Positions 21,922 through 42,431 of a stretch of 64,000 nt of DNA are shown one piece after another. The position numbers and the translations under genes are program-made. Source of the DNA: Lewinellaceae bacterium (GTDB taxonomy: Bacteria > Bacteroidota > Bacteroidia > Chitinophagales > Saprospiraceae); NCBI GenBank assembly GCA_016712415.1, contig JADJRC010000015.1:43670-107669 (forward strand), given 5' to 3'. Positions within the stretch are counted from its first letter, which is position 1. The number at the start of each line of letters is the position of its first letter. Under the pieces are notes generated by a model. It made no database searches, was not told the DNA's origin, and saw only the letters and a program-made list of their open reading frames with translations.

Positions 21922-24627
21922 TCAATCAAATTCTATGGTATCCCCCGCTTTGTAGCTCTTTTTTCCGTCGGCGTCCCTGTCTGTGCCTTCTTCAGCCGGC
22001 GGTTGGGTTGGACTGGTTTCTTCGCCAAACAAACTGGCCTGTTGCGGGGCTGCGGCCGGTTCTTCCTTCTTTACCCCCTTTGGGGCGGCATCGTCCAACT
22101 CTTTTACCCCAATAAGCAATTGGTCGCTCAGTTTGTTGCCGATGGCTTTCCAGCCTTTTACGTCCATGAAATCGCCCAGTGCGAGTTCACCGGCCATGGG
22201 CTTGCCTTTTACTTTGAGGGTGTATTTGATGCGCGGATTTTCCCGGACCGACACGTAAAGCAGTTTTGATTTGGCATGATCGGTGAGGTAGCCGTAGCGT
22301 TCTTTCAGTTTGCTGGTTTCGATATGGAACCGTTTGACCATCGTCCAGCCTTTATGTCCGTCGAAATGGACGGCGCTGATTACCAGTTGCGGGGTGAATT
22401 TGCACAGGTGCAGTATCTCTTTCATCTCAAAGCGCTGCTGTACATCGGTGTCTGTCACCTCATAGGAACCGTCGTTGTACAGCACCAGCAGGCTGTCGCC
22501 GGTATCGAATTCGCCCAGCAGGCGACCGCGCTCCTGGGTGTTGAGGCGACCGGTGATGTCGTCGAACCAGAGTTTCTGTGCGCCAATGGTGCTTTTGCCG
22601 ACCTCTTTCTGCCGGATTTGTTTCACCGGGTACCGCGTCAGGATATTTCCCTGCGAATCGCGGCCCTTGATAGCCAGTTCGGCAAAGTCATAGTCGAACA
22701 CCTTGATCTTGGCTGTGCTTCCGGGGCTGAGTGTGACGGTTACGAGTTCGCTTTCGCCGTTGGGATTCGCGGTGAAATACAGCACTTTGGAGCCTTTGGC
22801 GCTCGACCCGAGCTGGTATTCCTTGTCGCGGGTGATGGCGGTTACATTGAATCGTTTTACATAGGTGCGCCCTGATTTTGCGTCGACATATGTCATGTTG
22901 TAGGTCGTCCGCTCGTCGTTCTTCTTCCACACGGCGACGTGGATGATGTCCTTGCCTACAAATACTTTTTCGTCAACTTTTACCACTTTCATCACTCCGT
23001 CGCGGCGAAAGACAATGATATCGTCGATATCGGAGCAGTCCTGGACAAATTCGTCCTTTTTCAGGCCCATCCCGATAAAACCTTCACTGAGATTTACGTA
23101 CAGTTTGGCGTTGTTGGCTACCACCGCAGAGGCCTGTATGGTATCGAATTGAACGATTTCGGTACGCCGTTCACGGCCTTTGCCGTGTTTGGCCAGCAGG
23201 TTTTCAAAATAGGCGATGGTGTATTCTGTCAGGTGTTCCAGGTGGTATTTGGCCTGCAGAAGCGCTTCGCTGAGTTTGGCGATTTCTTCGTCGGCCTTGA
23301 AGGAATTGAACTTGGAAATGCGCTTGATGCGTATTTCGGTCAGCCGCACGAGGTCGTCCTGGGTGATCTCGCGCAGCAGCCTGATACGTTTGTCGGCGGC
23401 AGCGGGTTTCATATCCGGTGTCGCGACGTATTTCCGCAGTCCCTTGTCGATGGCCTCCAGCACGGCCTCCCAGGTTTCACATTCCTCGATATCGCGGTAA
23501 ATGCGGTTTTCGATGAATATTTTTTCGAGTGAAGCGAAGTGCAGTTTTTCTTCGAGGTCGTGCTGCAGGATTTCCAGTTCCTGCCGGAGCAGGTCTTTGG
23601 TGCGTTCGGTGGAAAGCCGGAGCAGTTCGTTCACATCGGTGAACAGGGGCTTGTTGTCGACAATGACGCAACAGTTGGGGCTGATGCTGACTTCGCAGGC
23701 AGTGAACGCGTAAAGGGCATCGATGGTGACATCGGGGCTCACCCCGTTTTGCAGTTCGATCTCGATGTCGATCTCGGCGGCTACCTTGTCGGTCACCTTT
23801 TTTATCTTGATCTGGCCTTTTTCGTTGGCCTTCAGGATGGAGTCGATCAGGTCGCCGGTGGTCACGCTAAAGGGTATTTCCGTGATTTGCAGCGTTTTTT
23901 TATCCAGTTCCCTGATGCGCGCACGCACGCGCAGTTTGCCGCCGCGCGCGCCGCCGTTGTAGTTGGCTGCGTCGATAAGGCCGCCGGTTGGGAAGTCGGG
24001 GATCAGGTCTGCTTTTTTGCCTTTCAGCACCGCAATACAACTTTTGATAATCTCGATAAAGTTGTGCGGCATAATCTTGGTACTCAGGCCCACCGCAATG
24101 CCCTCTGCGCCCTGGGCCAGTACGAGCGGAAACTTCATGGGCAGGTTGACGGGCTCCCGTTTGCGGCCGTCGTAGCTCATCTGCCATACCGTTGTATCGG
24201 GGTTGAACGCCACGTCGAGCGCGAACTTGGTCAGGCGCGCCTCGATATAACGCGGTGCGGCGGCAGAGTCGCCGGTACGAAAGTCGCCCCAGTTGCCCTG
24301 GCAATCGATGAGCAGGTCCTTCTGACCCATGTTCACCAGCGCGTCGCCGATGGCTGCGTCGCCGTGGGGGTGGAATTGCATCGTTTGTCCGATCAGGTTG
24401 GCTACTTTGTGGTAACGGCCGTCGTGCTGTTCGAACATGGCGTGCAGGATGCGGCGCTGCACGGGTTTGAGCCCGTCTTCCAGCGCAGGCACGGCACGTT
24501 CGAGGATAACATAGGAGGCATAATCCAGAAAATAGTTCTGGTACATCCCCGAAAGCGTGACGATGGTATCTTCTCCGTTATGAGAAGTAGTGGGCGGCGT
24601 AGAGTTGTCGCGTTTTTGTTTTGCCAT
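21922..24627 (-). CDS. parC: DNA topoisomerase IV subunit A
   Basis: Motifs GLKPVQRRILHAM, HPHGDAAIGDALV and the catalytic-Tyr region AAPRYIEARL. The ATG at 24627 (MAKQKRD) is preferred over the TTG at 24633. The C-terminal roughly 60 aa form a low-complexity acidic/Pro tail. Confidence 0.9.
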   Translation of the reverse strand: MAKQKRDNSTPPTTSHNGEDTIVTLSGMYQNYFLDYASYVILERAVPALEDGLKPVQRRILHAMFEQHDGRYHKVANLIGQTMQFHPHGDAAIGDALVNMGQKDLLIDCQGNWGDFRTGDSAAAPRYIEARLTKFALDVAFNPDTTVWQMSYDGRKREPVNLPMKFPLVLAQGAEGIAVGLSTKIMPHNFIEIIKSCIAVLKGKKADLIPDFPTGGLIDAANYNGGARGGKLRVRARIRELDKKTLQITEIPFSVTTGDLIDSILKANEKGQIKIKKVTDKVAAEIDIEIELQNGVSPDVTIDALYAFTACEVSISPNCCVIVDNKPLFTDVNELLRLSTERTKDLLRQELEILQHDLEEKLHFASLEKIFIENRIYRDIEECETWEAVLEAIDKGLRKYVATPDMKPAAADKRIRLLREITQDDLVRLTEIRIKRISKFNSFKADEEIAKLSEALLQAKYHLEHLTEYTIAYFENLLAKHGKGRERRTEIVQFDTIQASAVVANNAKLYVNLSEGFIGMGLKKDEFVQDCSDIDDIIVFRRDGVMKVVKVDEKVFVGKDIIHVAVWKKNDERTTYNMTYVDAKSGRTYVKRFNVTAITRDKEYQLGSSAKGSKVLYFTANPNGESELVTVTLSPGSTAKIKVFDYDFAELAIKGRDSQGNILTRYPVKQIRQKEVGKSTIGAQKLWFDDITGRLNTQERGRLLGEFDTGDSLLVLYNDGSYEVTDTDVQQRFEMKEILHLCKFTPQLVISAVHFDGHKGWTMVKRFHIETSKLKERYGYLTDHAKSKLLYVSVRENPRIKYTLKVKGKPMAGELALGDFMDVKGWKAIGNKLSDQLLIGVKELDDAAPKGVKKEEPAAAPQQASLFGEETSPTQPPAEEGTDRDADGKKSYKAGDTIEFD

Positions 24628-25253: not shown

Positions 25254-27159
25254 TTATTGACCCTGGCACGGAACTTCAGCCTTTACCTGTTCAATAAGAT
25301 TGTTTAGGGATGGTACAAAAAGACTTGAGGAGATAACAGCTTCTGAAAGAGCTGTGCATGCCTGGTTATTATTTCCTGTTTTATTCAATACTTCTGCCAT
25401 CCTGGCAAGTGTATTGGCTACAAATTCGGCATAACTTACCTTTCTATACAGGAGAAGGGCATTGCCCCACTCTTCAAGAGCCAGGGGGCCGTTATTTTCG
25501 TTATACCATGCAATCATGCCTTTGCTCCACATAATGTTTGCTTTTCCCAAATCCGAGCCTACTTTTTCAAAAAGGGGGAGAGCCTGCTGATAGAGGGCAC
25601 GCGCTTTGTCGTTTTCGCTCAAAAGCCTTTCCAAATCGCCCAAACTTTTGAGCGTGTTTGCTTTCCCAAATCATCGCCTACTTTTTCAAAGGAGAGCCTG
25701 CTGATAGAGGGCACGCTTTGTCGTTTTCGCTCATTCATTTCCAAATCGCCCAAACTTTTGAGCGTGTTTGCTTTCCCAAATCCGAGCCTACTTTTCAAAG
25801 GGGAGAGCCTGCTGATAGAGGGCACGCGCTGTCGTTTTCGCTCAAAAGCCTTTCCAAATCGCCCAAACTTTTGAGCGTGTTTGCTTTTCCCAAATCATCG
25901 CCTACTTTTTCAAAAAGGGGGAGAGCCTGCTGATAGAGGGCACGCGCTTTGTCGTTTTCGCTCATTCGCATTTCCAAATCGCCCAAACTTTTGAGCGTGT
26001 TTGCTTTTCCCAAATCCGAGCCTACTTTTTCAAAAAGGGGGAGAGCCTGCTGATAGAGGGCACGCGCTTTGTCGTTTTCGCTCATTCGCATTTCCAAATC
26101 GCCCAAACTTTTGAGCGTGTTTGCTTTTCCCAAATCATCGCCTACTTTTTCAAAAAGGGGGAGAGCCTGCTGATAGAGGGCACGCGCTTTGTCGTTTTCG
26201 CTCAAAAGCCTTTCCAAATCGCCCAAACTTTGGAGCGTGTTTGCTTTTCCCAAATCCGAGCCTACTTTTTCAAAAAGGGGGAGAGCCTGCTGATAGAGGG
26301 CACGCGCTTTGTCGTTTTCGCTCAAAAGCCTTTCCAAATCGCCCAAACTTTTGAGCGTGTTTGCTTTTCCCAAATCCGAGCCTACTTTTTCAAAAAGGGG
26401 GAGAGCCTGCTGATAGAGGGCACGCGCCGCTTCGTGATTGTCAAAAAAGAACCATTTGTTTCCAAGATTTAGGGCAACCTGGGCATAGTCAGCCGCAAAT
26501 CTGTCGCCTTTGGTTACAAGGGGGTCCAATTTGTGCAGGCGTTCTTCCAGTTCATCAATTTCCTGCTGTTGCTTGGGGGGCATGGCCGTGGCGAGGCCTG
26601 AAAACCGGGATTCGATATTGTGTTGCCATTGAAGTGTGCCGGGCAACATGCGGAAGTGGAACTTATAAACCAGCCAATCCCAGAAGTCGGGAGCAAGGCT
26701 TTGCACTCGGACCTGTGCGGGCTCGTCGCTCCAGAAGACAACTGAGGCCGGAAGGTGGCGGAACAAGAGTTCCCGTTCGAAGTTAAGCTCGCGAGCAAAT
26801 GCTTCTGCCGGGTCATTTTCATCGGCCGTTACAAGCGATTCCAAACCAAAGATATGGAACAGTGGATAAGTGTCGTTTTCCGTATCCGTTACTGCTGTCT
26901 CTTGCCTTAGCAGTTGGTAAAGTGAGAAGGAGTCGGTTACTTTTACTTTCGAAAGATTTTGCGATTTGTGGATATAACGATCTTGTAATTCAATGCTTAG
27001 CAGGCGAAACATCTGGTCCCGGAGGTCGCGATTTTCTGCTGTTACCCATACGATAACTGGATGGTCACGCTGTTGGAGCAGATTGAGCATCCTGTTCCAC
27101 GCAGTGTCGTTCTGTGTTCTGATCTCATCACGTTTTTGTTCCAGTTGTTCCCTGTTCAT
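25254..27159 (-). pseudogene. protein with a roughly 240-aa N-terminal domain of unknown function, about 8 near-identical 40-aa TPR/Sel1-like helical repeats and a helical C-terminal cap; the frame is broken by small deletions in the last three repeats
   Basis: ORF 25795..27159 (454 aa) holds 5 repeats of ALYQQALPLFEKVG[SD]DLGKANTL[KQ]SLGDLE[RLL/MRM]SENDKAR. ORFs 25619..25825 and 25254..25643 continue the same repeats in other frames and end with ...NNLIEQVKAEVPCQGQ. The start ATG overlaps the upstream ATPase stop (ATGA at 27156-27159). Confidence 0.7.
25540..26425. repeat. tandem 120-bp coding repeat array (about 8 units)
   Basis: Units starting at 25921, 26041, 26161 and 26281 are exactly 120 bp apart and almost identical. 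A further unit starts at 26401 and diverges. Units starting at 25578, 25692 and 25803 are 111-118 bp long because of small deletions. Confidence 0.9.
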
Positions 27160-28464
27160 GCTTTCTCATCAGATTTTGGAAAAAAATCCTCAAGCAGGGG
27201 ATTGATCCGACGGACAATGTCGTCGCCATTGTATTCGAATACGTTGAGGGCAAAAAGCAGATCGAGTAATTCGGGTGAAATACCTTCAAAGTTGCGGCTT
27301 TCAAGTAGTTTGCGGTGCGAATCGGTGAGTGGACGCAAACGTTCTACGGCTAGTCGTTTAAACGTACTTTTGGCTATTTCCGTTGTGACGGTTTCATCTG
27401 TATCAAGAAGGCACTGGTTGACCAGCCGAAGTAATTGACGCGGGCTCCCACCGGACATTTTAGTGATCATTTTCAATACGTTATTATCAAACAGCCCTTT
27501 GTCGACCCGGCGGGTCACTATGTTGCAAAACGCTTCGCAGTCTTCATCTTCGTCTATATGAATCATCGGAAGATATGAAAACTTGAACAATTCAGCCGCC
27601 GCAGCCTGTTCCTGTACATTGTAATAGGTTTGAATAGGTACACAACAAATAAGGTGAGCGTTCAGGTTTTGGGTAAACTGCGGGTCGGTTAGGAAGATAG
27701 CATTATAAATTTCCGGACGGGCTTTTTCAAAATCATCAACGATAAAGATCAAATCGCGGCCCTTACCATGTCGCTCGATAGCATCGCGTACGCCAACGAG
27801 AGCGGTACGAAGCTGGCCTACGAGCCCGGGTGTATCGCGGCGTATCGCCTCACGAATTTTTGTGGTGGTACTATTCTGATAACCGTATTTACTTTTAATA
27901 AATCCTTCTGCAGAAAAAATATCCCAGAAATTCCAGCCTGCTTTTGCCTCGACACCCGCTTCTGCTCCATAGTTGTAATTCAATTCTTTTTCAACTTCTT
28001 TATCCTGTAGCCATGCGTGTGCGATGTCTTCGAACTCTTTTTTTATTATATGGGACATTATGTTCGCGAAAGGTGCGCAAAAGTTTGTTAATCAGAATGA
28101 TAAAAAGGTCTTCCGGTTGCATTTTGAGGATTTCAATTTCTTCCTGCAAACTGACAAATACCGAAAAATACTGCCTGGGGGTGTTAATTGATTCATGGAA
28201 CCGGAGAAGTTCGACGGTTTTGCCGCATCCGCGATGCCCGGAGAATAAAATTTTTATGTAGTCATTGGGCAAATGTGTCAGCTCATCACCTGTGATACCC
28301 AAGTCTTTTTTTATCCGGGTAAATTGCTTGGGACTGCGCAATTCCTGCAGATGCACGTATAGGTTCTCTCTACCGGATTCAAAGATATCGAACTCGGGCT
28401 CGGTAGTTTCCATGGCCCGGAAAACGTCTTTTTCTGGAAAGGTATATTGATATTTTTTGTTCAT
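27156..28464 (-). CDS. ORC/Cdc6-like AAA+ (STAND-like) ATPase, with a 1-bp indel in the T7 run at 28038-28044
   Basis: Start MNKKYQYTFPEK at 28464. Walker A ILFSGHRGCGKTVEL, Walker B DLIFIVDDFEK, sensor-2/lid-like SGGSPRQLLRLVNQCL. ...TFREHNVPYNKK joins EFEDIAHAWLQDKE when one base of the homopolymer is removed, which links ORFs 28000..28521 and 27156..28058. Confidence 0.75.
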
Positions 28465-28551
28465 TTTTTTAAAGAAAAGCAAGCAAATGTAATGACTTTG
28501 GCTGTTACAAAACGCAATCATCTTCTTGCGTAAATAACATAATTGCTGAGG

Positions 28552-29103
28552 TTAGGTTGTACTGTACGCATCCGCCTCCTTAAACCGCCAAATGTCGTAC
28601 ACCATCACGGCAATAATGATTCCGGCAGGGATAAAAAATATTTTTGTGTGCAGGCTGGGAAACAAACCGACACTCAGCATGGCGCCGAATACAAAGCTGA
28701 TCATTACGATAAAGCGCAGCAGCGCTTCCCGCTGGATGAGGCGGCGTTTCTCCCCTTCGGAATGGAATATTTCGGCGATGTCCACTCCGAGTTCATTGAC
28801 CACACCCGTCATCTGGCTGGCCTTGATCAGGGAGGAGGTCGTGAGGCTTACCATGGCATTCTGGATACCGATGGCAAACAACATCATCCCCGGAAAAGCC
28901 ACGGGGTGCAGTGCTCCGGAATTGTCGGCGGCGGCGGCGACGAACGTAAAAAGTCCCGCCACAACAGCCAGCGGTACCAGGTGGAGGTAGCGCCACTTCA
29001 ACAGTTTTTCGCGCTCCACGCACCACCCGGCAAAGAAGCCGCTTTTTCGTTCGGCTTGATCAGGATTTCGCCCAATGCAGGCGGTTTGAGGTATTCGTAC
29101 CAA
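28552..29103 (-). CDS. DUF1275/YoaK-like membrane protein (N-terminus uncertain)
   Basis: 183-aa ORF with several hydrophobic helices and the motif AIGIQNAMVS typical of YoaK-like proteins. An ATG at 29124 lies in another frame, so the 5' end may also be frameshifted. Confidence 0.45.
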   Translation of the reverse strand: MVRIPQTACIGRNPDQAERKSGFFAGWCVEREKLLKWRYLHLVPLAVVAGLFTFVAAAADNSGALHPVAFPGMMLFAIGIQNAMVSLTTSSLIKASQMTGVVNELGVDIAEIFHSEGEKRRLIQREALLRFIVMISFVFGAMLSVGLFPSLHTKIFFIPAGIIIAVMVYDIWRFKEADAYSTT

Positions 29104-29197
29104 CGGTTTTTCATATGCGGTTGATTATTCTATCCTAAAATGTTGATTTTTGCGGGTCAATCCAATCCACATCTACTTTTCCATCAAGGCAGTAAAC

Positions 29198-30471
29198 ATG
29201 TCCTGCTGCCCGATTACTGTAAATTCCGGTCCCATGCGCACATTACAATCCTGGCTTTCCATTCCCGGCGACACTGATTTTTCCCTGCATAATCTGCCAT
29301 ACGGTATTTTTCATACCGGCGACGGGCGTGCCCGCGCGGGCATCGCAATCGGCGACCATATCCTCGACCTGGAGGCTGCCGCAGCGGCGGGCTTGTTCGG
29401 TAAACGTCGTTTTTTCAAAAAAGTATTTGCACAAACGACGCTCAACGATTTTATCGCATTGGGAAAACCCGTGACCAACCGTATCCGGCGCAAGGTGCAG
29501 GACTGGCTCTGTCAACCCGAAGCGCCAGAAAATGCCGAAAATCTGTTGGTTAATCGCCTGACCGCACACCTGCTCATGCCCGTACGGGTAGGCAATTATA
29601 CGGATTTTTACAGCAGCATCGAACACGCCACTAATGTAGGCAAAATGTTCCGGCCCGACAACCCGCTCCTGCCCAACTGGCGCTGGTTGCCGGTGGGTTA
29701 TCACGGCCGCGCTTCATCCATCGTGGTGAGTGGCACACCTGTGCGGCGCCCGCATGGCCAGGTGCTGCCCAAAGGTCAGGAGACACCCGTTTTCAGCCTT
29801 TCACAGCAGATGGACTTTGAGCTCGAAATGGCTTTTGTGATAGGAAAAAACAGCAGTATCGGCGAGACGATACCGGTTGAAAAGGCTGACGAATACATCT
29901 TCGGGCTGGTGTTGTTCAACGACTGGAGCGCCCGCGATATACAACGCTGGGAGTACGTGCCGCTCGGTCCGTTTCTGGGCAAAAACTTCGCATCCTCGAT
30001 TTCACCCTGGATTGTTCCGCTTGAGGCCCTGCGCCCGTTTCGCGTAAAAGGACCGCGACAGAACCCGGCCCCCCTGGCGTATCTTCAAACCCGGGGCGCG
30101 CAGAACTACGATATTTCGCTTGAAGTTGCCCTCTCTACAGGCGAGAAAAGCCCGCAAACTATTGTATCCCGTTCCAATACAAAGTATCTTTACTGGTCTA
30201 TGGCGCAACAATTGGCACATCACACCGTCAACGGTTGTAATTGTGCGTGGGCGATCTGATGGCATCGGGTACGATCAGCGGCCCGGAAGCGGGTTCTTAC
30301 GGTTCGATGCTTGAACTCTCCTGGGGCGGCAAAGAACCTGTCCGGCTGAACGACGGCGCCGCCAGGACATTCCTGGAAGACGGCGACAAGGTGACCATAC
30401 GCGCCGTTGCGGCGCAGGAAGGTGTTCGTGTCGGTTTTGGGGAGGTCAGCGGTGTTATCCTTGGTGCTTGA
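29198..30471 (+). CDS. fahA: fumarylacetoacetase, with a frameshift near 30240
   Basis: FSLHNLPYGIFHTGDG..., NDWSARDIQRWEYVPLGPFLGKNFASSISPWIV (a FAH hallmark). ORF 29150..30259 ends ...HHTVNGCN. ORF 30241..30471 continues VGDLMASGTISGPEAGSYGSMLELSWGG... Confidence 0.85.
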
Positions 30472-30558
30472 ATTGCAAAATCTCAACTATCTCCTATTGT
30501 TCATCGGTTTGCTCAACTGCTCGTTTTCTGGTAATTATCAAACCATAATGTACTGAAA

Positions 30559-32778
30559 ATGCCTTTAACGTTCGTGCTTCGGCTTTGCGGGGTATTGTCC
30601 CTGCCGCTTCGTTTGTGGAGCCTTGTTTTTTTTATTGTTTCGGGAGGAGTTTGGGAGTTGAGGGGGCAGTGTACGACAAATCTGTCCTTGACTGCAACAA
30701 ATTCTACAGGCACAACAGCTACATGGACAGCCCCGGCCTCTGGCGGTCCATGGATCGTTCAGATAACGGCTATGGGGGCAGGCGGCGGCGGAAACTCCGG
30801 CGGCGATCTTGGGGGCAGTGGAGCAACTATTAGTGGAATTTTTACTGTACAAGACGGCGAAACCTTATTGGCTATAGCCGGTGGGGCAGGAGAAAGTAAC
30901 AGCAACAACGGCGGCGGCGGCGGCGGCGGTTCAGGTGTGGTCAATTGCGGCAATCCTTCCGATTGCGCTAACGGGACCATTTTGTTGATTGCTGCTGGCG
31001 GCAACGGCGCGGAAGGCGATAATGACGGCTTGGGTGGTTCTGCACTTACGTCAGGTTCTGGCGATGGCGGTGTAGCGAATAATAGTTCAAATAGTGGCGG
31101 TGGCGGTGGCGGCTTGAACTCCCCAGGTGGGAATGGAACGTCAGGTTTCGGTGGTACCGCTATATCCAAAACGGGGTTGGCTACCGGTGGTGACGGCGTG
31201 GGAGGACCAGGAGACCCGGACGGCGGCGGCGGTATGGGCGGCGGCGGCGGCGGCGGAAGCAGCACATCCGAAGGCTCGGGCGGCGGAGCTGGACATACAG
31301 GGGCTACAGGCGGTAACACGCAGAATGCGTCTTCTTTTATTGATGCTTCGGGTGCACTGCAGTTCAGTAGTAATGGTTTGACGGGTGGTGGTTCTAATAA
31401 TGGATCGGTTACGATTCTTTGCCTGAGTGCGGTTTCCCAGGCAAACGACTGCAGCAATACGGTTGTCGTAAACCTTACCGGGCCTGGAGTTGCCGGTTGG
31501 AAGGCGCCAAGTACCGGAGGCCCCTGGCAGGTACAAATGGATGTAACGGGAGCCGGCGGAGGAAACTATAACCCAAGCGGATCAAATAATGACCGGGAAG
31601 GCGGCGGCGGGGCCACAATCAGTTCGACGTTTACGGTACAAAACAATCAGGTCCTGTTTGCCATTGCCGGTGGCGCAGGAACAGGTTCGGTAAATAATGC
31701 TGCGGGCGGCGGCGGCGGTTCTGGCGTAGTGAATTGCGATGTTACGGGGAATTGCGCAAGCGGGACGGTCCTCATCATTGCTGCCGGAGGTAACGGCGCT
31801 GAAATCGATGGCGCTAATGGCGATGGACAGGGAGGTTTATCTTCTGCAGGAGATGGCACGGGCGGAAGCGGCAATGGGGGAAACGGCGGCGGCGGCGGCG
31901 GCGGTAGGAATTCAGCGGGAGGCAATGGTGCAGATGGCGACGGTGGCGGTCAAGTTCCCTGACGGGGCTGTCTTCAGGAGGGGATGGGAATGGCAGCGGA
32001 GTAGATCCTGACGGCGGCGATGGCATGGGCGGCGGTGGAGGTGGTGGCAACGACACTGCCAACGGCTCGGGCGGCGGCGGCGGACATGAAGGCGGCGATG
32101 GAGGAACCTCAACAACCAATAGAGCACGTTCCTTTAATTCAGGAACACTGATTACCAGTAGCGACGGTACACTTGGCGCCGGCCCCTCAAATGGCACCAT
32201 CACCATTACTTGCCTCAGTCTCCCCCCGTCGAACTCATCAACTTCAAAGCGCTCATCCGCGACGACCAGACGGTCGATCTGCTTTGAGCACGGCCTCGGA
32301 AAAAAATAACCTGGGTTACGACGTGGAGCGCAGTGCCGACAACCAGAACTGGAAAACACTCGGCTTCGTGCCCGGAAACGGCACCACAACGGAACAACAC
32401 GAGTATGTTTTTACCGATGAAAAACCTTTTTCAGGGGTCAACTATTACCGCCTGAAACAACAGGATTACGACGGCAAATCGGAGTATTCACCTATCGTGG
32501 TAGCCGATATCCGTATGAACGGCCTGGACTTCGATATTTTCCCCAACCCGTCAGTCAGCGGCGAGCTCAACGTCCGGACGGTCAGCAAAGTTGAAGGCGA
32601 GGCATTGCTGGAGATATACGACTGGGTGGGTTACAAGGTGTACGAAGAGACGGTCCAACTGCTGAAAGGCACGATGGTTTACCCCGTCTCGATGGCAACT
32701 TTCCCGAAAGGCAGTTACACGGCCCGGCTTGAATTGCCCGACGGAACCCTGCTGTTCCGAAAAATCGTGTTGCAATAA
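30559..32778 (+). pseudogene. T9SS cargo paralog A: two tandem poly-glycine (Gly_rich-like) modules, an LPVEL-type beta domain and a T9SS CTD, with about 3 indels
   Basis: ORF 30559..31962 contains two copies of the pattern TWTAP.xGGPW.V...GAGGG...GATISxxFTVQ...AIAGGAG...GGGGGSGVVNC...C..GT.L.IAAGGNGAE. Frames switch near 31955, at the C6 run 32222-32227 and near 32288. The gene ends with ...FPNPSVSGELNV...LLFRKIVLQ. Confidence 0.7.
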
Positions 32779-32939
32779 ACCAGGAAGGAGCGGGGCTGCG
32801 ATTCTGCCTGACAAGCCCTGCTCCTTCCTTAAACCCGTATTGCTTGACCATTTTCGCCAAATCTCAATCTATTTACCCTATTCAAGTTATTTTGTTCCGA
32901 TATTTGCCATCTTGAATCAGCAAATATCATAAAACCCAT

Positions 32940-34366
32940 ATGCTCATGAAAAGCAACTTCTACCTGTTTACAGAATGGCCTGGTATTTCCAGAACCTTTG
33001 TATGGGGTCTGGCGACCATTCTTGCCGGCGGAATACTGCCGGCCAAAATGCAGGCACAATGCGACGGCGGCGCCGTCATCAATATTTCCGGCGCCGGTAC
33101 CGGCACCTGGACGGCCCCCTCGTCGGGCGGCCCGTTCACGATTTCCATTACGGCACTCGGTGCGGGTGGCGGTGATTCGGAAAACAACAACCAGGCGGCG
33201 GCGGCGCCGAAATGATCGGTGAGTTTGTTGTGCAGAACAGCCAGGTCATTTTTGCCATTTCAGGCGGCGCCGGTGTAAGCTCGGGTGTATTTGCCGGCGG
33301 CGGCGGCGGCGCTTCGGGTGTCGTCAACTGCGGTATTTCGGGCAATTGCGCGGCCGGCACGCTGCTTATCATGGCAGCAGGCGGCAATGGCGGCGAAGAA
33401 CAAGGTGATGGGCTTGGCGGTGCAGTTACCACAGGCCTCGGCGCCAGCGGCACCGGCGGCGGCGGCAATGGCGGCGGCGGCGGCGGCGGCTTGAACGGCG
33501 CCGGGCTCCCTGGTACGGGTAGTGATTTTGGCACCGGCGGTGGACAAGCTATATTTGTCGGCGTTACCGCAGGTGGTAACGGAGCCGGCGCCGTCGGTGG
33601 CCCGGCCGGCGGCAACGGCATGGGCGGCGGCGGCGGCGGCGGCAGCAGTAACAATACGGGCTCAGGTGGCGGTGCCGGCCATACGGGCGCTGCCGGTGGA
33701 AATGGTGCTGCTGCACAATCTTACAACATCGGAACCAATAAACAAAACACCCCCGGCGCTGCCGGCGCCGGACCTTCCGACGGGTCAGTCACTGTGATCT
33801 GTCTCGGCGCCCTGCCGGTAAAACTGACCGACTTCAAAGCGCTTATCCATTCGGAAGGCGTCCGGTTGTTCTGGAGTACGGCTACCGAAAAGGACAATCT
33901 GGGTTACGATATAGAGCGCAGCGGCGACAATCGCAACTGGACCACACTGGGCTTTGTGCCCGGCAACGGTACCTCTGCTTCGCCCAATACCTACGATTTT
34001 ATGGATCGCGATCCGCTTGCAGGGGTCAATTACTACCGCCTGAAACAAATGGATACCGATGGCAAGTACGAGTATTCTCCCATGGTTATTGCCGACGTAC
34101 GCGCCAATGCACTGTCGTTCGAGGTTTACCCCAACCCGTCCACAACAGGCGCTCTTACTTTCCGAACCGTTAGCCAGATCGATGGCGAAGCGTTGCTGGA
34201 GATGTTCGATTGGGTCGGCTATAAAGTGTACAAAGAGCAAATCCAGTTATTCCAGGGTACAATGGCGTATCCCGTTTCGATGGCGACCTATCCCAAAGGG
34301 ACTTACACCGCCCGTTTGGAAATGCCTGACGGCACGGTGCACTTCAGGAAAATCGTATTGCAATAA
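32940..34366 (+). CDS. T9SS cargo paralog B: one poly-glycine module, an LPV-type beta domain and a T9SS CTD, with one frameshift near 33193
   Basis: ORF 32940..33215 gives the signal peptide and CDGGAVINISGAGTGTWTAPSSGGPFTISITALGAGGG. ORF 33212..34366 continues with GEFVVQNSQVIFAISGGAG...GGGGGASGVVNCGISGNCAAGTLLIMAAGGNGG... and ends YPNPSTTGALTF...VHFRKIVLQ. Confidence 0.75.
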
Positions 34367-34626
34367 GAATCTCCTGTCTGGGTTTTCGGGTTGCCGCGCG
34401 CCTGGGTAGTGCATGGCAACCCGAACAGCCTGTGCCACTTGTGGCATCTGTGAAAATAGAGATGAAGGGTGTACCTTTTTGGCATAGTTTTGTCGGTAAA
34501 TTATACAACAAATTGGTTAAAACCATGAATAGGCGCAATCCATTGATTTAGTGGATTTTATGTTGTATGTGGGTTTCGGGAAATCTACGCGACGCTGAAC
34601 ATTTTATCTTCAAAACCGATTCAATC

Positions 34627-36196
34627 ATGAAAGTGATTCATTTTTATGCCCCTAAACGGGGTGCATTGGCTGTTTTTCATATTGGTAAATTGCTGCTGTT
34701 CATAACCGGATTTGTTGCCGGTGGTTTCCATGTACAGGCGCAATGCCCGGGTTCAGGGGTTACCCTGAGTTCACAGTCCGAAGTCAATAGTTTCGCTTCC
34801 GATTATCCCGGATGCACCATACTTCCGGTCAGTCTGACGATAAGCGGATCCGATATAACGAACCTCAACGGATTAAGTGTGTTGAATGAGTTTGATATAA
34901 ACACTACTGCCAGCCTGAGGATCGAAAGCAATCCGGTGCTGACTAATCTGTCCGGCTTGTCCGGTCTTTCCTTTATTCCGGGAGGGCTCACTATTTTTGA
35001 CAATGGGGCTTTGACGAATCTTAACGGCCTGAATAACATCACGTCCATAGGCTTTGAAGGCTGAATGTTGAGTCAATACACAGTTGACAAGCCTGTCTGC
35101 CTTGTCTGCCGTCACCAGTATCGGCGGCGACCTTTTACATAGCCTTCAACCCGGCGTTGACGTCTTTTGGCGGCGGCTTGAACCTTGTACCGAGCCTGGG
35201 TGGTATTTTGCAGATACAGAACAATAGCGCCATGACAACCTTGAACGGGCTTAATGCGCTCACAAGTGTCAGTCAATACCTCTTGATATCTTCCAATAAT
35301 AGTTTGACCTCTCTAAGCGGATTATCAAGCCTTGCATCCGTCGGGCAGAGCTTCGAAATATCCGGCAATGCTTCGATGACCACCCTGGGCGGCTTTACCA
35401 ACCTGACGACAGTTGGCGGCGACTTCAGTATTGAACAAAACGGCGCGCTGACTAACCTGAACCAACTGACCAACCTGTCGTCGATAGGGGGCAACCTTTC
35501 GATCAATTTCAACAGCCAACTCAGCAACTGCGCCGCACAAGGCATCTGTGATTATCTGGCGGCTCCAGCCGGCGCGATCCTGATCGGTGGCAATGCAGGC
35601 GCTTGCGTCAACCAGGCCGCGATCGAAGTCGCCTGCGGCCTGCTCCCCGTCGAGTTAATTGACTTTAAAGCGGTCATCCACCAGCACGACATACAACTCG
35701 TCTGGAGCACCGCCTCGGAGGAGGACAACCTTGGCTACAGTCTTCAGCGCAGCGCCGATGGACACGGCTGGTCGGAAATTGGTTTCGTGCAGGGCCAGGG
35801 CAGCGCGACCAAACAGTCGGACTATTCCTGGATGGATAAAAATCCGATTTCCGGAGTCAATTACTACCGGCTTAAACAAATGGACAGCGACGGCAAGTAT
35901 GAGTTCTCGCCGATCGTAGTGGCCGACATGCGCTCCACAGGTACGCAATTTGATATTTTCCCAATCCCTCGATTGACGGCGCCGTAAGTTTGCGGGCCAC
36001 TACTTCAACGGAGGGCTGGGCCTATCTGGAGGTCATGGACTCAAACGGCAAAAAAGTATATAATGAAAAAATCGGCTTCCCGGAAGGCACGGTGATCTAC
36101 CCGGTTTCGCTGACGGCATATCCCAAAGGTGTGTACACCGCCAGGCTTGAACTTCCTGACGGCCAGGTGCAATTCAACAAAATTGTGCTGCAATAG
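34627..36196 (+). pseudogene. T9SS cargo paralog C: leucine-rich/receptor-L-domain-like repeats replace the glycine module, with the same C-terminal cassette; about 4 indels
   Basis: Start MKVIHFYAPKRGALAVFHIGKLLLFITGFVAGGFHVQAQC. It has repeats of about 22-24 aa (..LTNLSGLSGLSFIPGGLTIFDNGALTNLNGLNNITSIG..). Frames break around 35060-35125 and near 35962. The gene ends FPNPSIDGAVSL...VQFNKIVLQ once corrected. Confidence 0.65.
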
Positions 36197-36316
36197 TCCG
36201 GAATTTACAAAAAAACAACATTACGAACCCTTCCACTGGCGATTTATCGTACATGGAAGGGTTTTATCTTTACGCCCGCATCTACATATTTCATATATTA
36301 AACAGGATCGAGGTCT

Positions 36317-37707
36317 ATGATGGCAACTGTTTACATCTTTAAAAGGTACTTAATATCCATTTTTTATTATTCCTGCTGCGCGGGAATGGCATCGTTTTCA
36401 ACGCTAAGTGCCCAGTGCAACAACAACACGGTGATGAATATAAGCGGCCCCGGCACGACGACCTGGACCGCACCGCAAACCGGGGGGCCGTTTTTTGTCC
36501 AGATCACCGCTACGGGCGGCGGCGGCGGCCCTATAACCCAACTGTTTTTTAACAACGGCGGTAACGGAGCGACAATGAGCGGCGTTTTCGTGGTCCAAAA
36601 CGGGAGACTATCCGGGCCATTGCGGGCGGCTTCGGCAAGTTTGCCACCCTGGAAGGCGCAGGCGCAGGTGGAGGATCGGGCGCCGTAAACTGCGGCAACC
36701 CTTCGGACTGCGCCAATGGCGAGATACTCATCATTGCAGCGGGCGGCAATGGCGGTGACCAAGTGGTTGGCCTGGGCGGTTCTGCTGCGACGAATGGCAG
36801 CGGCAACGGCGGGTTGGCCGGCGGCGACCCCTTGCACGAGCCCGACTGGGGTGGCGGCGGCGCGGTAAATAGCGGCGGCCAGAATTCCATCGGTTCAGGG
36901 GACAGGCGGTGGCCAGGTTTTTCTGACAGGCCTGTCGGCAGGCGGTGAAGGTAGCCGCACCCAGGTGCCCAACGATGGCGGCGCAGGCATGGGCGGGCGG
37001 CGGCGGCGGCGATTACGGCGCCGGTGGCGGCGGCGGCCATACGGGTGGCAACGGTGGCAACGGTTCCGAAGCGTCCTCTTTCAACTCGGGAGCCGACCAG
37101 GTCAATACCGACGGCGCCAATGGCGGGGGCAACAACCCGGGATCGGTGGTCGTGGTGTGTTTGGCCCTTTACCTGTCGAACTGGTTAACTTTAAGGCATT
37201 CATCCATGTCAGCCATGTCGGGTTGCACTGGAGCACGTCTACGGAAAAAGATAACCTGGGTTTTGAAGTTGAACGCAGTGCAGACGGCGCCAATTGGCAC
37301 ACCCTTGACTTTGTGCCGGGCAGCGGCACGAGCCTCTCATAAAACAGGTATTCCTTTTCGGACCATGACCCGTTTCCGGCGTGAACTACTACCGCCTGAA
37401 GCAAATCGATCATGACGGCGCCTTCGAATGCTCTCAATGGTGGTTGCTGATATTCGTACCGATGAACTGCAATTCAATTTTTCCCAGTCCGTCTACCGAT
37501 GGATTGACTAACTTCAGGGCTGTTAGCAGCCAGGAAGGTGCCGGGCTGCTGGAAATATTTGACTGGGCCGGCTACCGCATATCGCGAACCGGTACAATTA
37601 TTGAAGGGAACTATGGTGTACCCGGTCTCAATGGCCACATTTCCCAGGTACCTATACCCGCTCGTCTGGAACTGCCGGACGGGAGTACGTTTTTCAGAAA
37701 ATTGTAA
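36317..37707 (+). pseudogene. T9SS cargo paralog D (poly-glycine module), with many frame breaks
   Basis: The N-terminus MMATVYIFKRYLISIFYYSCCAGMASFSTLSAQCNNNTVMNISGPGTTTWTAPQTGGPFFVQITATGGGGG matches paralogs A and B. Downstream, family motifs (VNCGNPSDCANGEILIIAAGGNGG, GGGGHTGGNGGNGSEASSFNSG, NYYRLKQIDHDG) are scattered over all three frames. Confidence 0.6.
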
Positions 37708-37802
37708 TCAGTAGCCCATTTCAACATATTGGTTTTATTGATCTCTTCTGTCACTGCAACCGCCTGGCAGGGTAATATTATTTTCAGACTACCGATTGCC
37801 AT

Positions 37803-39269
37803 ATGACAAAACCGCAATACACCTTCTACTACTGGCTGTCCTGTTTTCCGGCCATTCACAGTGCGGGATCATTTTTCCACTGCACTGATCCTGGCCGGCA
37901 ATTTTCATGTTGTCGCGCAATGGCCAACAATTGCACTGAGCCCTGACAGGGCCCAATACGGCTTCCTGGACAGCACCTGCATCGGGTGGCCCTTTTTCGG
38001 TGCGGATCACCACCTCCGGCGGCTCCGGTGGAGCATATCTTGAAGCAAATCCGGATCGTGCCGGCGGTACTGGCGCTACCATGAGCGGTACGTTTGTCGT
38101 GCAGAACGGCGAGACGCTTTTTGCGATTGCCGGCGGCGGCGGGTTCCACTCGCAACTGGAAGGCGGCGGCGGCGGCGGCGGCTCCGGTGTCGTCAATTGC
38201 GGCAACCCATCCGATTGCGCAGGAGGAACGATCCTGACTCGTTGCTGCCGGCGGTAATGGCGGACAACTGGGCGGCCCCAACGGCGGCTTCGGCCTGGGG
38301 GGCTCTTCCGCAACAGACGGCGATGGAAATGGCGGCGTCATCTCACAACAGCGATGGCGGGCGGCGGCGGCGGCGCTATAAACGGACCGGACGGCCGCAT
38401 CGGGCGAGACGGCGGCGGCCAGGTCGCCATCGGGTCTGTCGCCCGGTGGAGAAGGGAAGCCGAAACCTGCTGAGCAATCCGCCTTCCGGCATCAACGACG
38501 CGGCGACGGCATGGGCGGCGGCGGCGGGCGGCGACGGCGCTACGATGGATAATGCAGCCGGCGGTGGCGGCGGTCATTCAGGCGGCGACGACGGCACCGC
38601 GGCATCTTCCTTTAATTCGGCTCGGCGCAGGCCACGTCCGGCACCATCGGCGGCGGCGGCAGCGGACCGCACAGCACCCCTGCATTCCCCGGCACGATCA
38701 CCGTCGTTTGCCTGCAGGCATTGCCGGTGCAACTGCTTGAGTTCAGGGCTGTAATTCAGCCGGAGTCCGTCAGTCTTCGATGGAAGACTGCTACCGAAAA
38801 GGATAATCTCGGCTTCGATATCGAGCTGGCAACGACGCCCTGCAACTGGCTCCGGTGGTTTTGTTCCGGGACATGGAACCAGCGCAACCGGGCATGAATA
38901 CCATTTTCATGATCAGTTTCCACAAAGGCATCAATTATTACCGGCTCAAACAGCAGGATTTTGATGGCGGCTTTGAATATTCTCCGATTGTTGTGGCCGA
39001 TATGCGTGCACATAACGTCAGGTTCGATGCATTTCCCAACCCCTTCAACTCAGGAACACTGAACTTCGAGCATTTTCGCCCTGGGAAGGCGCGGAGGCTC
39101 TTTGGAGATATTCGACTGGGCGGATACAAAGTGTGCAAAGAGACCCTGCATTTTTCGGAAGGCACGATCGTATGGCCGGTATCCTTGGCTAACTTCGAAA
39201 GGACCCTACACCGCCGACTCGGGCTGCCGGGCGGTAAGGGTCGTGTTCCGGAAAATACTTTTGCAATAA
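37803..39269 (+). pseudogene. T9SS cargo paralog E (poly-glycine module), with many frame breaks
   Basis: Family motifs appear in shifting frames: GGTGATMSGTFVVQNGETLFAIAGGGG, GGGGGGSGVVNCGNPSDCAGGTIL, INYYRLKQQDFDGGFEYSPIVVADMR, FPNPFNSGTLNF. The terminal ...FRKILLQ stop lies at 39267-39269. Confidence 0.55.
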
Positions 39270-39310
39270 TGCTAACGGCGTGCGTTTGCCGACCGTACCA
39301 TAAGTCTTCG

Positions 39311-42118
39311 TTATCGCCGCATGATAAACCGCATACCGTGTCCCCGGCCACCGGCCATTGAATTGAGCGCGTAGGTCAGTTTGACCATACCGTAGCGTCC
39401 GAGCGAAGCCAGGCGTTCGTCTTCTACATAATTGAGGCTGGCTGAGCGACGGATACCGACGTTCCGGGTTGAGCAGGTCGTGTATGGTAAGGGTGACTTG
39501 CAGGCGTTTGTTTTCATAAAAAACTTTGACACACCGGCATTTCCATACCGGTATAGCCTGGCCGTAACCTTCTCCAAGACCGCTGTATTTTGTTACGTCC
39601 AGGCCACTGTTCAGGTTGAAATTCAAGGAAGATCCAGGTCAAGTTCGGCATTCCAGATTGGTCAGGTAGTCCTGGTTGAACGCCTTGTCAAGCGAATAAA
39701 GCGTTTGGTTCCAGCGCAGTTCAGCCCCTGCATGCAGGTTGAACCATTCTTTGGGGGTGTAGTCCCACGACAGCGATTGCCGCAACTCCAGTCCGCTGGT
39801 GTAGTTTTCCCGGCTGTTGATGAAGTTTTGTCCGCGACTGAAGCCGATCTCGCTGTTCAGGTTGAAACGGCTGTCTATCTTTTCATGGAAGCCCGAGGGC
39901 AAATTTGCCGTTGATGAGGCGATAGTCGGCATCGACGTTCACCGGGCGGTAGTGCCGCACAAAATTCGAATCGACAGATTGTGCGTTCACAATGCGGTCG
40001 CTGGTGTAGGTAAAAAACAGGCCGCCGAAAAACCTGCGCATGGTTTCGGGGCTGAACGACATATAGTTCAGGTTGATATTGTGGGCATATTCCGGGCGCA
40101 GGTCGGGATTGCCTTCGGTGATGTTGAGCGGGTCGCTGACATCGGGCACCGGCTGGAGCTGCTGTACGTTCGGCGCATTGACGGCGGCAGTATAACCGAA
40201 CCGAAGGTTGCGATTCGGCAAACTGATACTGGAAATCCATACGCGGCAACAGGTGCCGGAATGACTGTCGAACGGGTTGCCCCTGGCCGGAAGTCACCCT
40301 CTCCTTCCAGCACAGCCGACTGTGCGTCGAGGCCGAAAGCCGCCGTTCCAGCCTTTTCGGTTGATGCGGAAACCCGCGCCGCCGCGGTGGTAACTGAAGG
40401 TGTTGGTATAGGCGTTTGAAAGCAGATCATTGAAATACCGCTCGCCGTTGGTCACGTTATACATCCTTGTCGGCGCGGTTGTCGGTGCGGAAATAGCCAT
40501 AGGTTACTTCAAAGGTAGCGGCGTTTGCCCAGCGGTTCGGTGAACGTGGCTTTTGCGCCTCAGTTACCGACGTCGTTTTTAAAAAACTGATCCTGGGCAA
40601 TGGTATCGGTGGAACCGGATTGTCCCCCGTCGGTGTAAAATGTATTCTTCGCAAGGCTGGTGCTTTCCGAGTCGTTGTTGTTTAACCCAAAAGTGAAGTT
40701 TGTGCTGAAATTTCGACCTTTTTTGGCGAATTTATGTCTGAACAGCACATTGCCGTTCAGGTTGGAGCCGGTAGCCAGGGAACGATAATCGCGGCTGCCT
40801 TCGTTGCGCAGCAGCATGTCGGGGCCGAAGGTTTGCGACGACGAGCCGGAAATAGCATCCCGGTCGGTGTAGATGAATGCGGTATTTACCTGAACGGAAT
40901 TGAACGAGTCCAGTTTCTGGTCGAGCGACAGGTTGAGCCGGTGATTGTTCGTCAGGTTATCGTTGTTGGTGTGTTCGGTTGTTGTAAAGTTGCCGCCGGG
41001 CAGGAAGGACTGGCGGGTACTGTTCCGGTCATAAATTTTATCGGCGTTGCTGAACATATAGCTCGTATTCAGATCGGATTTGGCGCCGAACTCCTGGTTG
41101 AAATTGAGTCCGCCTGCCCAGGTGCGCAGAAACCCCTGGTTGTCGCCGAAATCGAGCGGAATGCTGTTGTCGTCGGAGTTGAACTCCAGTTGTATGCGCC
41201 CGCCTCCGCCGCCCATCATCTGGCGCATGGCCCCGGAGAAAGCCATGTAGTCGTCGATGGAGAAACCGGCCTGGTTAATGTTGTTGCCCATGCCGAGTAT
41301 GGAGAGTTGCTGCCTGGGTTTGAATCGGTTGAGGCTGAGGTTGTTTTTCGTACCGCAAATCGCCCGGGTCGTCGGCGCCGGCGGCGGCAACCGCGCGGCC
41401 AAACCAGCCGTTCTTTTTATCCTCCTTGAGTTCGAGGTTGATCGTTTTTTCCCGCTGCCCGTCGTCGATGCCGCTAAATACGGCCTGGTCCGACTTTTTA
41501 TCATATACCTGTACCTTGTCGACAGCGTCGGCGGGCAGGTTTTTGGTGGCGAGTTTGGGGTCGTTTCCAAAGAATTTTTGCCGTCAACCATCACGTTTTT
41601 TACTTCCTCGCCTTGTGCGCGCACGGTGCCGTCGCGTTCCACTTCCACCCCGGGCAGTTTTTTTCAACAGATCCTCTACTACGGCGTTGTCTTTTACCTT
41701 GAACGACCCGGCGTTAAACTCAATCGTGTCCTGCCGGATGGTTACCGGGTTAGCTGCCCCTTTTGATCTCCACTTCGCCGAGCAGTTGTGACTGGAGTTG
41801 CATTTGCAACACCCCGAGGTCGACGGCGGGTGCAGTGCCGCTCAGTTGCACGGTTTTTTGAAGATTTTGGTACCCGAAATACGTACAACGCAGCAGATAA
41901 TCGCCTGCCGGCTGGTTTTTCAGTTCAAATGCGCCGGTATCGCCCGTTCGGGTAAATGCCTGGAGCGAACTGTCGGAGGCAGACAGCAGCATGACGTTGC
42001 CGCCTGCCAGGGGACTGCCGCAGTATCGACCAGGGCGCCGCGAATGGCGTATTTTGAGAAAAAGACAGAAAGGGAACAGCAACAATGCCGTAAAGAGGAT
42101 CAAAAATTTTGTGTTCAT
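39311..42118 (-). pseudogene. CarboxypepD_reg-like plus outer-membrane beta-barrel (TonB-dependent-receptor-like, OMP_b-brl_3-like) protein, heavily frameshifted
   Basis: Start MNTKFLILFTALLLFPFCLF at 42118. There is an N-terminal carboxypeptidase-regulatory-like segment, then plug-like text (EVERDGTVRAQGEEVKNVMVDGK). Barrel strands are spread over ORFs 40560..41648, 39883..40221, 39639..39932, 39189..39626 and 39311..39577 in different frames. Confidence 0.6.
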
Positions 42119-42312
42119 AACCTGTTTTCGATGAATGACCCGGCAAATGTCCGGGCGCCGTTCCCGAAACAGGTTAACTGACCTTGAAGGAAGGTTAAAA
42201 AAGGTTAATGGCATGGTACGACAGGTATCCGCCTGGGCCGGGATGACACCCGCTCGTTGCACGCGAATGACATCCCGCGCTAAAAATCTTCCCAAAACGT
42301 TTCCGCGTTTCG

Positions 42313-42320
42313 TACCTTTG
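42313..42320 (+). promoter_or_regulatory. Bacteroidota -7 promoter box TACCTTTG (TAnnTTTG consensus) upstream of ahcY
   Basis: Exact match to TAnnTTTG, 112 bp upstream of the ahcY ATG. The flanks cgTACCTTTGtgcgg are nearly identical to the box upstream of obg. Confidence 0.4.
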
Positions 42321-42431
42321 TGCGGTATTTTTGACAACCAAACAGAATGAAGTTTTGTTTGGGAAAAATATAGAGGCCCAATACCGAATAATTGCTGTCA
42401 ATTCACTACTCACCACTTACTACTCATTACA

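Follow-up and report, generated by a model that had tools for sequence, protein, structure and literature searches.

The glycine-rich domain (GRD) in the extracellular, ligand-binding part of the metazoan receptor tyrosine kinases ALK and LTK is represented in Pfam by PF12810 (ALK_LTK_GRD), a family for which Pfam also describes an expansion in Trichomonas. The GRDs of ALK and LTK form a large lattice of fourteen polyglycine-II (PGII) helices (bioRxiv 10.1101/2023.11.25.568672). A search of the literature on bacterial ALK-type GRDs, PF12810, PF21722 and bacterial PGII helices yielded no characterization of a bacterial member. In Bacteroidota, proteins exported as type A cargo of the type IX secretion system (T9SS), such as RgpB and PorU of Porphyromonas gingivalis, carry a signal peptide that follows the Bacteroidetes "Q-rule", by which a Gln is exposed after signal-peptide cleavage (PMC5837995), an immunoglobulin (Ig)-like spacer, and a C-terminal domain (CTD) whose architecture has been described as seven strands (PMC11285876). 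Here, we describe a locus at which these two systems meet: five tandem genes, designated A to E, at positions 30559-39269 of a 64-kb stretch (hereafter, the window) of contig JADJRC010000015.1 from a Lewinellaceae bacterium. The locus is a new member, invisible to Pfam and packaged as T9SS cargo, of the known, functionally uncharacterized ALK/LTK-type glycine-rich superfamily. With a probability of roughly three in four, we consider it a conserved array of Sec/T9SS-exported surface or secreted proteins with ALK/LTK-like binding heads, the genes of which are intact in vivo.

All five encoded proteins follow one four-part architecture, consisting of a signal peptide, a variable head, an Ig/fibronectin type III (FN3)-like spacer and a seven-stranded type A CTD, with spacer and CTD being common to A-E (Table 1). 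The head is a Gly-rich domain of about 255 residues, present in two copies in A and in one copy each in B, D and E. A search with a profile of this domain returned exactly these five copies, all on the forward strand between 30.5 and 38.8 kb (E-values of fragments from 4e-111 to 7e-4), and no copy elsewhere in the 64-kb window or on the antisense strand. The open reading frames (ORFs) and the profile search thus bear out what a previous sequence-only reading had proposed, namely five tandem genes at these coordinates, four of them with Gly-rich modules, and the ordered motif series given there agrees almost letter for letter with the consensus of 52 homologs. Frameshift-aware alignment reconstructs proteins of about 735 (A), 475 (B), 523 (C), 471 (D) and 497 (E) amino acids.

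The packaging as T9SS cargo is indicated at both termini. By inspection, the five signal peptides and those of the orthologs possess a hydrophobic N-terminus ending in Ala or Gly directly before QC; the cleavage predicted before this Gln-Cys fits the Q-rule and would give an N-terminal pyroglutamate. At the opposite end, the T9SS type A sorting domain model TIGR04183 (cut-off 23 bits) matches the extreme C-terminus of the intact orthologs over nearly its full length, with 20.2 (A), 25.3 (B), 31.0 (C), 21.1 (D) and 18.6 bits (E), so that the B and C orthologs score above the cut-off. Within the window, it yields 31.8 bits for C and 21.7 bits for both A and B, while the CTD of gene A matches PF18962 with 24.3 bits. 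PF18962 is also matched by 44 of the 52 family members (best E-value 9.9e-11). A full-length model of an intact gene B ortholog (P0014; mean predicted local distance difference test score, pLDDT, of 89) shows an N-terminal helix, the GRD (residues ~40-291), a beta-sandwich (~294-386) and a seven-strand C-terminal sandwich (~394-474). The helix, which spans residues 18-30 and is followed by a low-pLDDT linker, corresponds in this model to the predicted signal peptide, and the C-terminal half resembles PorU as well as tandem FN3 pairs. In signal peptide, spacer and C-terminal sandwich, the proteins therefore share the layout of type A cargo.

Gene C lacks the Gly-rich module, while its C-terminal ~190 residues are as in its neighbors. 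Its head matches Recep_L_domain with 26.4 bits (cut-off 21.8) and that of the intact 523-aa ortholog with 40.4 bits. This Receptor L domain (PF01030) has the fold of the L domains of the EGFR and insulin receptors, and two module types that are otherwise known from the ectodomains of metazoan receptor tyrosine kinases thus lie next to each other in one bacterial array. To our knowledge, neither GRD nor Receptor-L-like heads are among the characterized T9SS cargo, which comprise proteases, glycosidases and the SprB/RemA adhesins.

The relationship of the Gly-rich heads to ALK and LTK, which had been suspected from their composition of interspersed Gly stretches, is supported by profile, alignment and structure comparisons. 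Among PDB sequences, the family profile matched, for the Gly-rich domain, only ALK (E-values 7.6e-9 and 1.1e-8) and LTK (4.5e-5 and 3e-5). One of the aligned stretches, W.VP...I..GA.GG....G....G.F......L....G..G, has a low compositional bias of 0.2-0.3, and a second stretch matching ALK is highly biased (about 36-38). Furthermore, hhalign aligned the second domain of gene A (A2) with PF12810-type domains over 227 columns, from the first to the last strand, with a probability of 99.4% and an E-value of 3.4e-21. The template consisted of five such domains, four of them above the Pfam threshold and one (P0119) below it at 19.9 bits. Besides Gly, conservation is complete or almost complete at positions such as W22, A55, F61, A111 and S225 and at four Cys, which probably form two disulfides. 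The window family is therefore a distant relative of PF12810 that lies outside the current Pfam model.

A template-free AlphaFold2 model of the first GRD of gene A reached a pLDDT of 93.3 and a predicted template modeling score (pTM) of 0.91. It comprises nine beta-strands and a long Gly-rich stretch (residues ~112-231) that is assigned with confidence to neither helices nor strands, which would be expected for PGII helices. In a Foldseek search against the PDB, the top 21 matches were ALK/LTK TG/GRD structures (E-values 4.4e-10 to 7e-4, probability 1.00, query TM-score, TMq, 0.56-0.68). The next-best matches were phage fibers with E-values above 0.01, the only phage structures listed being the Bxb1 tail tip (9D93) and the Pam3 fiber (7YFW; E-values of these solved fibers 0.018-0.077), while the PGII-sandwich adhesin gp38 of a T-even phage (6F45) was not among the 50 PDB matches listed (to an E-value of about 3.4). 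Since the ALK structures were solved in 2021, after the training cut-off of AlphaFold2, memorization is unlikely. The model thus predicts the head to be a TNF-like beta-sandwich fused to a polyglycine-II helix lattice, that is, the "TG" fold of ALK and LTK, and structure prediction returned a confident fold where a disordered chain would have spoken against the sequence-only reading.

The window family and ALK/LTK (PF12810; PDB 7N00, 7LS0, 7NWZ, 7NX1) share profile-level homology, the predicted fold, an extracellular location (predicted for the window family) and a common order of motifs: W.VP...I...GA.GG / G....G.F......L....G..G / GGGGGG / L.I.AGGGG / GGGGG / G[FM]GGGGG / GGGGG[YH].GG / SF / G.V.I. 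The bacterial GRD is shorter, however, with the mature protein starting at Gln-Cys after the signal peptide, about 18 residues before W.AP. This first Cys aligns with that of "AQCNN" in ALK, while the segment N-terminal to it is lacking, and the hhalign alignment accordingly starts at template column 15. A corresponding segment, FTNC..GP..C..Y, precedes the W.VP strand in the PF12810-type protein P0057, unlike in the window family, and ALK has the same pattern at this position. Conversely, the window family contains an additional, near-invariant CGNPSDC loop, which is not found in ALK/LTK and appears to be a disulfide loop, and the conserved first Cys could hold the two ends of the domain together by pairing with the conserved last one (...C-L). 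In two core motifs, His and Met take the place of Tyr and Phe of ALK/LTK. The most pronounced differences concern the surroundings of the domain: ALK and LTK continue with an EGF-like domain, a transmembrane helix and a kinase, none of which is present in the window proteins, where the GRD is followed by the beta-sandwich spacer and the T9SS CTD. Moreover, the window family has no homolog of ALKAL.

Phylogeny and gene order provide information about the age of the array. In a neighbor-joining tree, the two domains of gene A (A1 and A2) and those of B, D and E form separate clades, each with orthologs from several assemblies. Furthermore, the gene order is kept in other Lewinellaceae/Saprospiraceae assemblies; for example, the Lewinellaceae assembly GCA_016713985.1 has the order topoisomerase IV - DUF1275 - fumarylacetoacetase - B - C - D - E, which is the neighborhood of the window without A. 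The separate clades and the conserved gene order therefore show that the array is old. The sequence-only reading had taken it for a locally amplified, possibly diversifying family, which does not hold in either respect, as A1, A2, B, D and E represent old syntenic orthogroups and the ratios of nonsynonymous to synonymous substitution rates (dN/dS) amount to 0.11-0.16. A comparison of the groups B, D and E shows 108 columns conserved in all three, 65 of them Gly. Another 44 columns are fixed within each group and differ between the groups, clustering in loops and insertions such as GGDPAHEPDW in D or SRNLLSNPPSGIN and SGPKSTPSNP in E.

These features suggest how the proteins may reach and act at the cell surface. 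Following Sec export, the signal peptide would be cut before the Gln, which would be cyclized to pyroglutamate, and the protein would fold and undergo disulfide oxidation in the periplasm. The T9SS would then recognize the CTD and move the protein across the outer membrane, where the CTD would be cut off and the protein anchored at the surface or released. By analogy with cytokine binding of ALK/LTK and with the phage fiber and virion proteins of this fold, the GRD may act as a rigid, surface-displayed binding head, in which the lattice of invariant Gly (PGII) would serve as the scaffold presenting the paralog-specific, ortholog-conserved loops, and these loops would bind different ligands. 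It is conceivable, though in our view unlikely, that the GRD head, rather than binding ligands as an adhesin, forms a structural coat or an ice- or mineral-binding surface, or carries an unrecognized toxic or enzymatic activity. No ligand is known, and comparison of the syntenic loci revealed no functional partner gene conserved beside the array; furthermore, PGII bundles have other roles elsewhere, providing snow fleas with antifreeze surfaces and supplying the buried structural core of enzymes (bioRxiv 10.1101/2023.11.25.568672). However, the nearest structural relatives are ALK/LTK and phage tail-fiber or virion proteins (most of the phage roles being known from annotation alone), the non-Gly residues that are conserved seem to have structural roles, with no catalytic motif among them, and loops that differ between paralogs while being conserved among orthologs fit distinct binding specificities.

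The integrity of the genes had to be evaluated separately, as none of the five forms a single uninterrupted ORF within the window. With a custom alignment of protein to DNA that tolerates frameshifts and was guided by intact orthologs, 36 frameshifts were counted in the array (Table 1). In contrast, in short-read metagenome contigs with about 85-89% DNA identity to the window (L002-L005), every array gene that is covered is intact and the order is unchanged, with gene A being 5'-truncated at the start of one contig (L004). One of them (L003) contains all five genes in complete form, encoding 732, 475, 523, 471 and 497 aa, and another intact ortholog of A comprises 739 aa (P0001). The window copies show uniform amino acid identities of 84-90% to intact orthologs (A, 84% to that of L003; B, 89.5% to the 475-aa P0014; D, 87.8% to a 471-aa ortholog; E, 86% to the 497-aa P0013), and dN/dS values are 0.15 (A), 0.14 (B), 0.11 (C), 0.12 (D) and 0.16 (E). 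As the values for the heavily frameshifted D and E are as low as those for A-C, there is no sign of relaxed selection. Furthermore, the disruption extends to the neighboring genes: fumarylacetoacetase contains 2 frameshifts, the DUF1275 gene about 4 frameshifts and 2 stops, and the downstream outer-membrane receptor gene is fragmented, with two pieces carrying matches to OMP_b-brl_3 and CarboxypepD_reg, while topoisomerase IV is free of frameshifts and long ORFs are back after ~42.6 kb. Because the related short-read assemblies are intact, dN/dS is 0.11-0.16 and flanking housekeeping genes are broken too, the 36 frameshifts are most likely assembly errors within an error-rich patch of this contig, which stems from a metagenome-assembled genome (MAG), and the genes are most likely intact in vivo. 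That at least D and E are decaying pseudogenes of the source genome, with the frameshifts as real mutations, appears rather improbable to us. Such decay would account for the presence of 36 frameshifts and an in-frame stop, for their concentration in D and E (28 of the 36), and for the many frameshifts outside long homopolymers; it is at odds with dN/dS values of 0.12 and 0.16 in D and E, compared to 0.11-0.15 in A-C, with the equally high amino acid identity of D and E (86-88%), with the damage to the conserved fumarylacetoacetase gene, the DUF1275 gene and the downstream gene for the outer-membrane barrel, and with the nature of the contig as part of a MAG. "Pseudogene" calls in this error-rich stretch of the MAG contig should therefore not be trusted.

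Several observations weigh against our view of an intact, exported array with ALK/LTK-like heads. For A, D and E, the CTD falls slightly short of the curated cut-offs, and no T9SS machinery genes are located within the 64-kb window. The density of frameshifts is uneven, ranging from 1 in B to 18 in E, and part of the frameshifts lie outside homopolymers. Finally, hmmscan returned no match at E-values up to 1 for either PF12810 (gathering threshold 24.5 bits) or PF21722 (Gly_rich_2) among the window ORFs, the intact orthologs and the 52 homologs, although P0057, used as a positive control for PF12810, scored 44.3 bits. The direct match to the Pfam Gly_rich model (PF12810) that had been expected from the sequence is thus missing, to which the bias filter of HMMER may contribute; in spite of this, the comparisons described above show strong homology to the PF12810 domain. 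Read on its own, this negative result, together with the high bias of the second ALK-matched stretch, would fit a merely compositional resemblance of low-complexity, largely disordered Gly-rich proteins, which we regard as very improbable, since the separate low-bias stretch aligns to ALK/LTK as well, the hhalign match extends across the full domain with its terminal strands, the AlphaFold2 model has a pLDDT of 93 with the best Foldseek matches all being ALK/LTK (TMq up to 0.68), and the non-Gly residues named above and the four Cys vary little or not at all. A disordered low-complexity protein was rejected on the basis of this pLDDT and of the Foldseek and hhalign matches. Phase variation, in which slipped-strand mispairing in GGC/G tracts would switch these surface proteins, can practically be dismissed. 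In its favor, 3 events of +1 occur in ggcGggcggc contexts (36995, 38359 and 38526) and surface proteins are typical contingency loci. However, a gene with 10-18 frameshifts, of either sign and for the most part not located in repeats, would be unworkable as a switch, the neighboring metabolic genes are hit too and no such tracts are disrupted in orthologs.

Beyond the array, an exhaustive hmmsearch with a GRD-only profile matched 3,949 representative clusters at E-values up to 1e-3, 967 of them at up to 1e-10 and 51 at up to 1e-30. Many of these matches are giant proteins of 1-5 thousand amino acids with up to seven GRD copies. The window family is, by comparison, compact, with one or two GRDs, a fixed spacer and CTD, and a conserved multi-gene array; as far as the named hits show, it is confined to Bacteroidota of the Lewinellaceae/Saprospiraceae type. 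The domain content of the wider family was determined from a sample of ten profile matches. Four of the ten contain Por_Secre_tail or CHU_C (P0058, P0065 and P0071) or the CHU_C-associated Ig_7 (P0077), accompanied by fn3, PKD and Ig domains. PF12810 was found above threshold in four of the ten, in one of which (P0094) it covers the region matched by the window profile, and PF21722 matched below threshold in P0062 and P0115 (17.6-18.5 bits). In three large proteins (P0093, P0098 and P0115), two kinds of GRD stand in tandem, one of them PF12810 and the other best matched by the window-family profile; the second kind in P0115 also shows a weak match to PF21722. This tandem arrangement suggests that three or more GRD subfamilies make up an unrecognized clan. 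A scan for related loci with the GRD pattern GGxG[MF]GGGG[GA] confirmed no locus, and a scan with spacer and CTD mainly retrieved generic T9SS proteins of Bacteroidota as well as two close relatives. A 66%-identical relative of the spacer and CTD of B was found in L007 (CAYXQJ010000121.1), which is binned as "uncultured Hyphomicrobiales"; the presence of a T9SS cargo gene of the Bacteroidota type there suggests mis-binning.

Relatives were also found among viruses. A comparison of the model with BFVD gave 65 viral proteins at E-values up to 1e-3 (best 1.5e-9), including virion structural, short tail-fiber and minor tail proteins, so that Gly-rich proteins of phages and giant viruses share the predicted fold, in the form of an extracellular distal module. 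While the phage proteins are parts of virions, the genes of the array belong to the chromosome, where their order beside housekeeping genes is conserved, and they encode T9SS sorting domains. An origin from prophage tail fibers was rejected, as the genes are chromosomal, syntenic and equipped with CTDs. The phage and giant-virus matches are often automatically annotated as "receptor protein-tyrosine kinase", others as collagen-like or PE-PGRS; the former name presumably stems from the GRD signature of ALK, and these viral names are likely misleading.

The compact ~255-residue GRD thus represents a presumably secreted Bacteroidota module that is missed by current Pfam models, although AlphaFold models it confidently, and it makes a case for a new family within the GRD clan. 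Its relatives widen the known reach of the fold to ~3,900 representative clusters and to phage tail-fiber and virion proteins. The domains provide small targets for studies of PGII-lattice folding and for protein design, as well as a starting point for tracing the origin of the ALK ligand-binding domain. A possible, though doubtful, extension is that the window cargo, the thousands of related proteins in public genomes and metagenomes and the phage proteins together make up a prokaryotic reservoir that was the source of the ligand-binding domain of metazoan ALK/LTK, and perhaps also of the expansion in Trichomonas; the array would then consist of surface receptors whose paralog-specific loops, borne on an invariant PGII lattice, recognize distinct ligands. 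If this were the case, it would offer a small, disulfide-stabilized bacterial model for folding of, and binding by, the PGII honeycomb.

Table 1. Coordinates of the array, its parts and neighboring features within the window.
Feature	Position	Strand	Content
Topoisomerase IV	21925-24627		no frameshifts
Three ORFs	25795-28521	-	between topoisomerase IV and DUF1275
Error-rich assembly patch	28500-42340		array, upstream DUF1275 and fumarylacetoacetase genes, downstream outer-membrane beta-barrel gene
DUF1275 gene	28551-29250	-	
Fumarylacetoacetase	29234-30478	+	
Array, genes A-E	30559-39269	+	from ATG of A at 30559 to stop codon of E at 39267-39269
Gene A	30559-32778	+	signal peptide, GRD1, GRD2, beta-sandwich spacer, T9SS type A CTD (~32536-32775)
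Gene A, domains by profile	GRD1 ~30661-31431; GRD2 ~31444-32219	+	
Gene A, GRD1 as modeled	30661-31452	+	sole Gly-rich domain intact in a single reading frame; stretch used for the AlphaFold2 model
Gene A, frameshifts	near 31961, 32218, 32286		three, all -1
Gene B	32940-34366	+	signal peptide, one GRD (~33054-33808), spacer, CTD (~34124-34363)
Gene B, frameshift	near 33193		one, -1; base missing between upstream and downstream frames
Gene B, downstream ORF	33212-34366		identical to MBK8194640.1
Gene C	34627-36196	+	signal peptide, Receptor-L/leucine-rich repeat-like beta-helix head, common spacer, CTD (35957-36193)
Gene C, frameshifts	35060, 35074, 35135, 35956		four
Gene D	36317-37717 (3' end approximate)	+	signal peptide, one GRD (~36410-37166), spacer, CTD; 10 frameshifts plus an in-frame stop codon
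Gene E	37803-39269	+	signal peptide, GRD (~37925-38720) with E-specific loop insertions, spacer, CTD; 18 frameshifts
Pro/Ala-rich shadow ORFs	30759-31457, 33148-33654, 36549-37040, 37789-38313	-	opposite GGN-rich coding strand
Outer-membrane receptor gene (OMP_b-brl_3/CarboxypepD_reg)	~39640-42337	-	fragmented

With respect to annotation, the downstream ORF of gene B corresponds to an entry from a Lewinellaceae bacterium MAG that NCBI names "T9SS type A sorting domain-containing protein". The long Pro/Ala-rich ORFs that the sequence-only reading had described on the antisense strand are indeed present among the window translations. These are shadows of the GGN-rich coding strand and not genes; with 160-230 aa, they might be mistaken for genes where annotation relies on ORF length. 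Finally, the three ORFs between topoisomerase IV and DUF1275 encode a 454-aa tetratricopeptide repeat (TPR) protein, a 300-aa protein and a 173-aa protein, the last of which carries a P-loop-like motif, GHRGCGKT. All three are missing from a syntenic locus (L001), and they may represent one frameshifted STAND-like NTPase-TPR gene that was inserted at this position.

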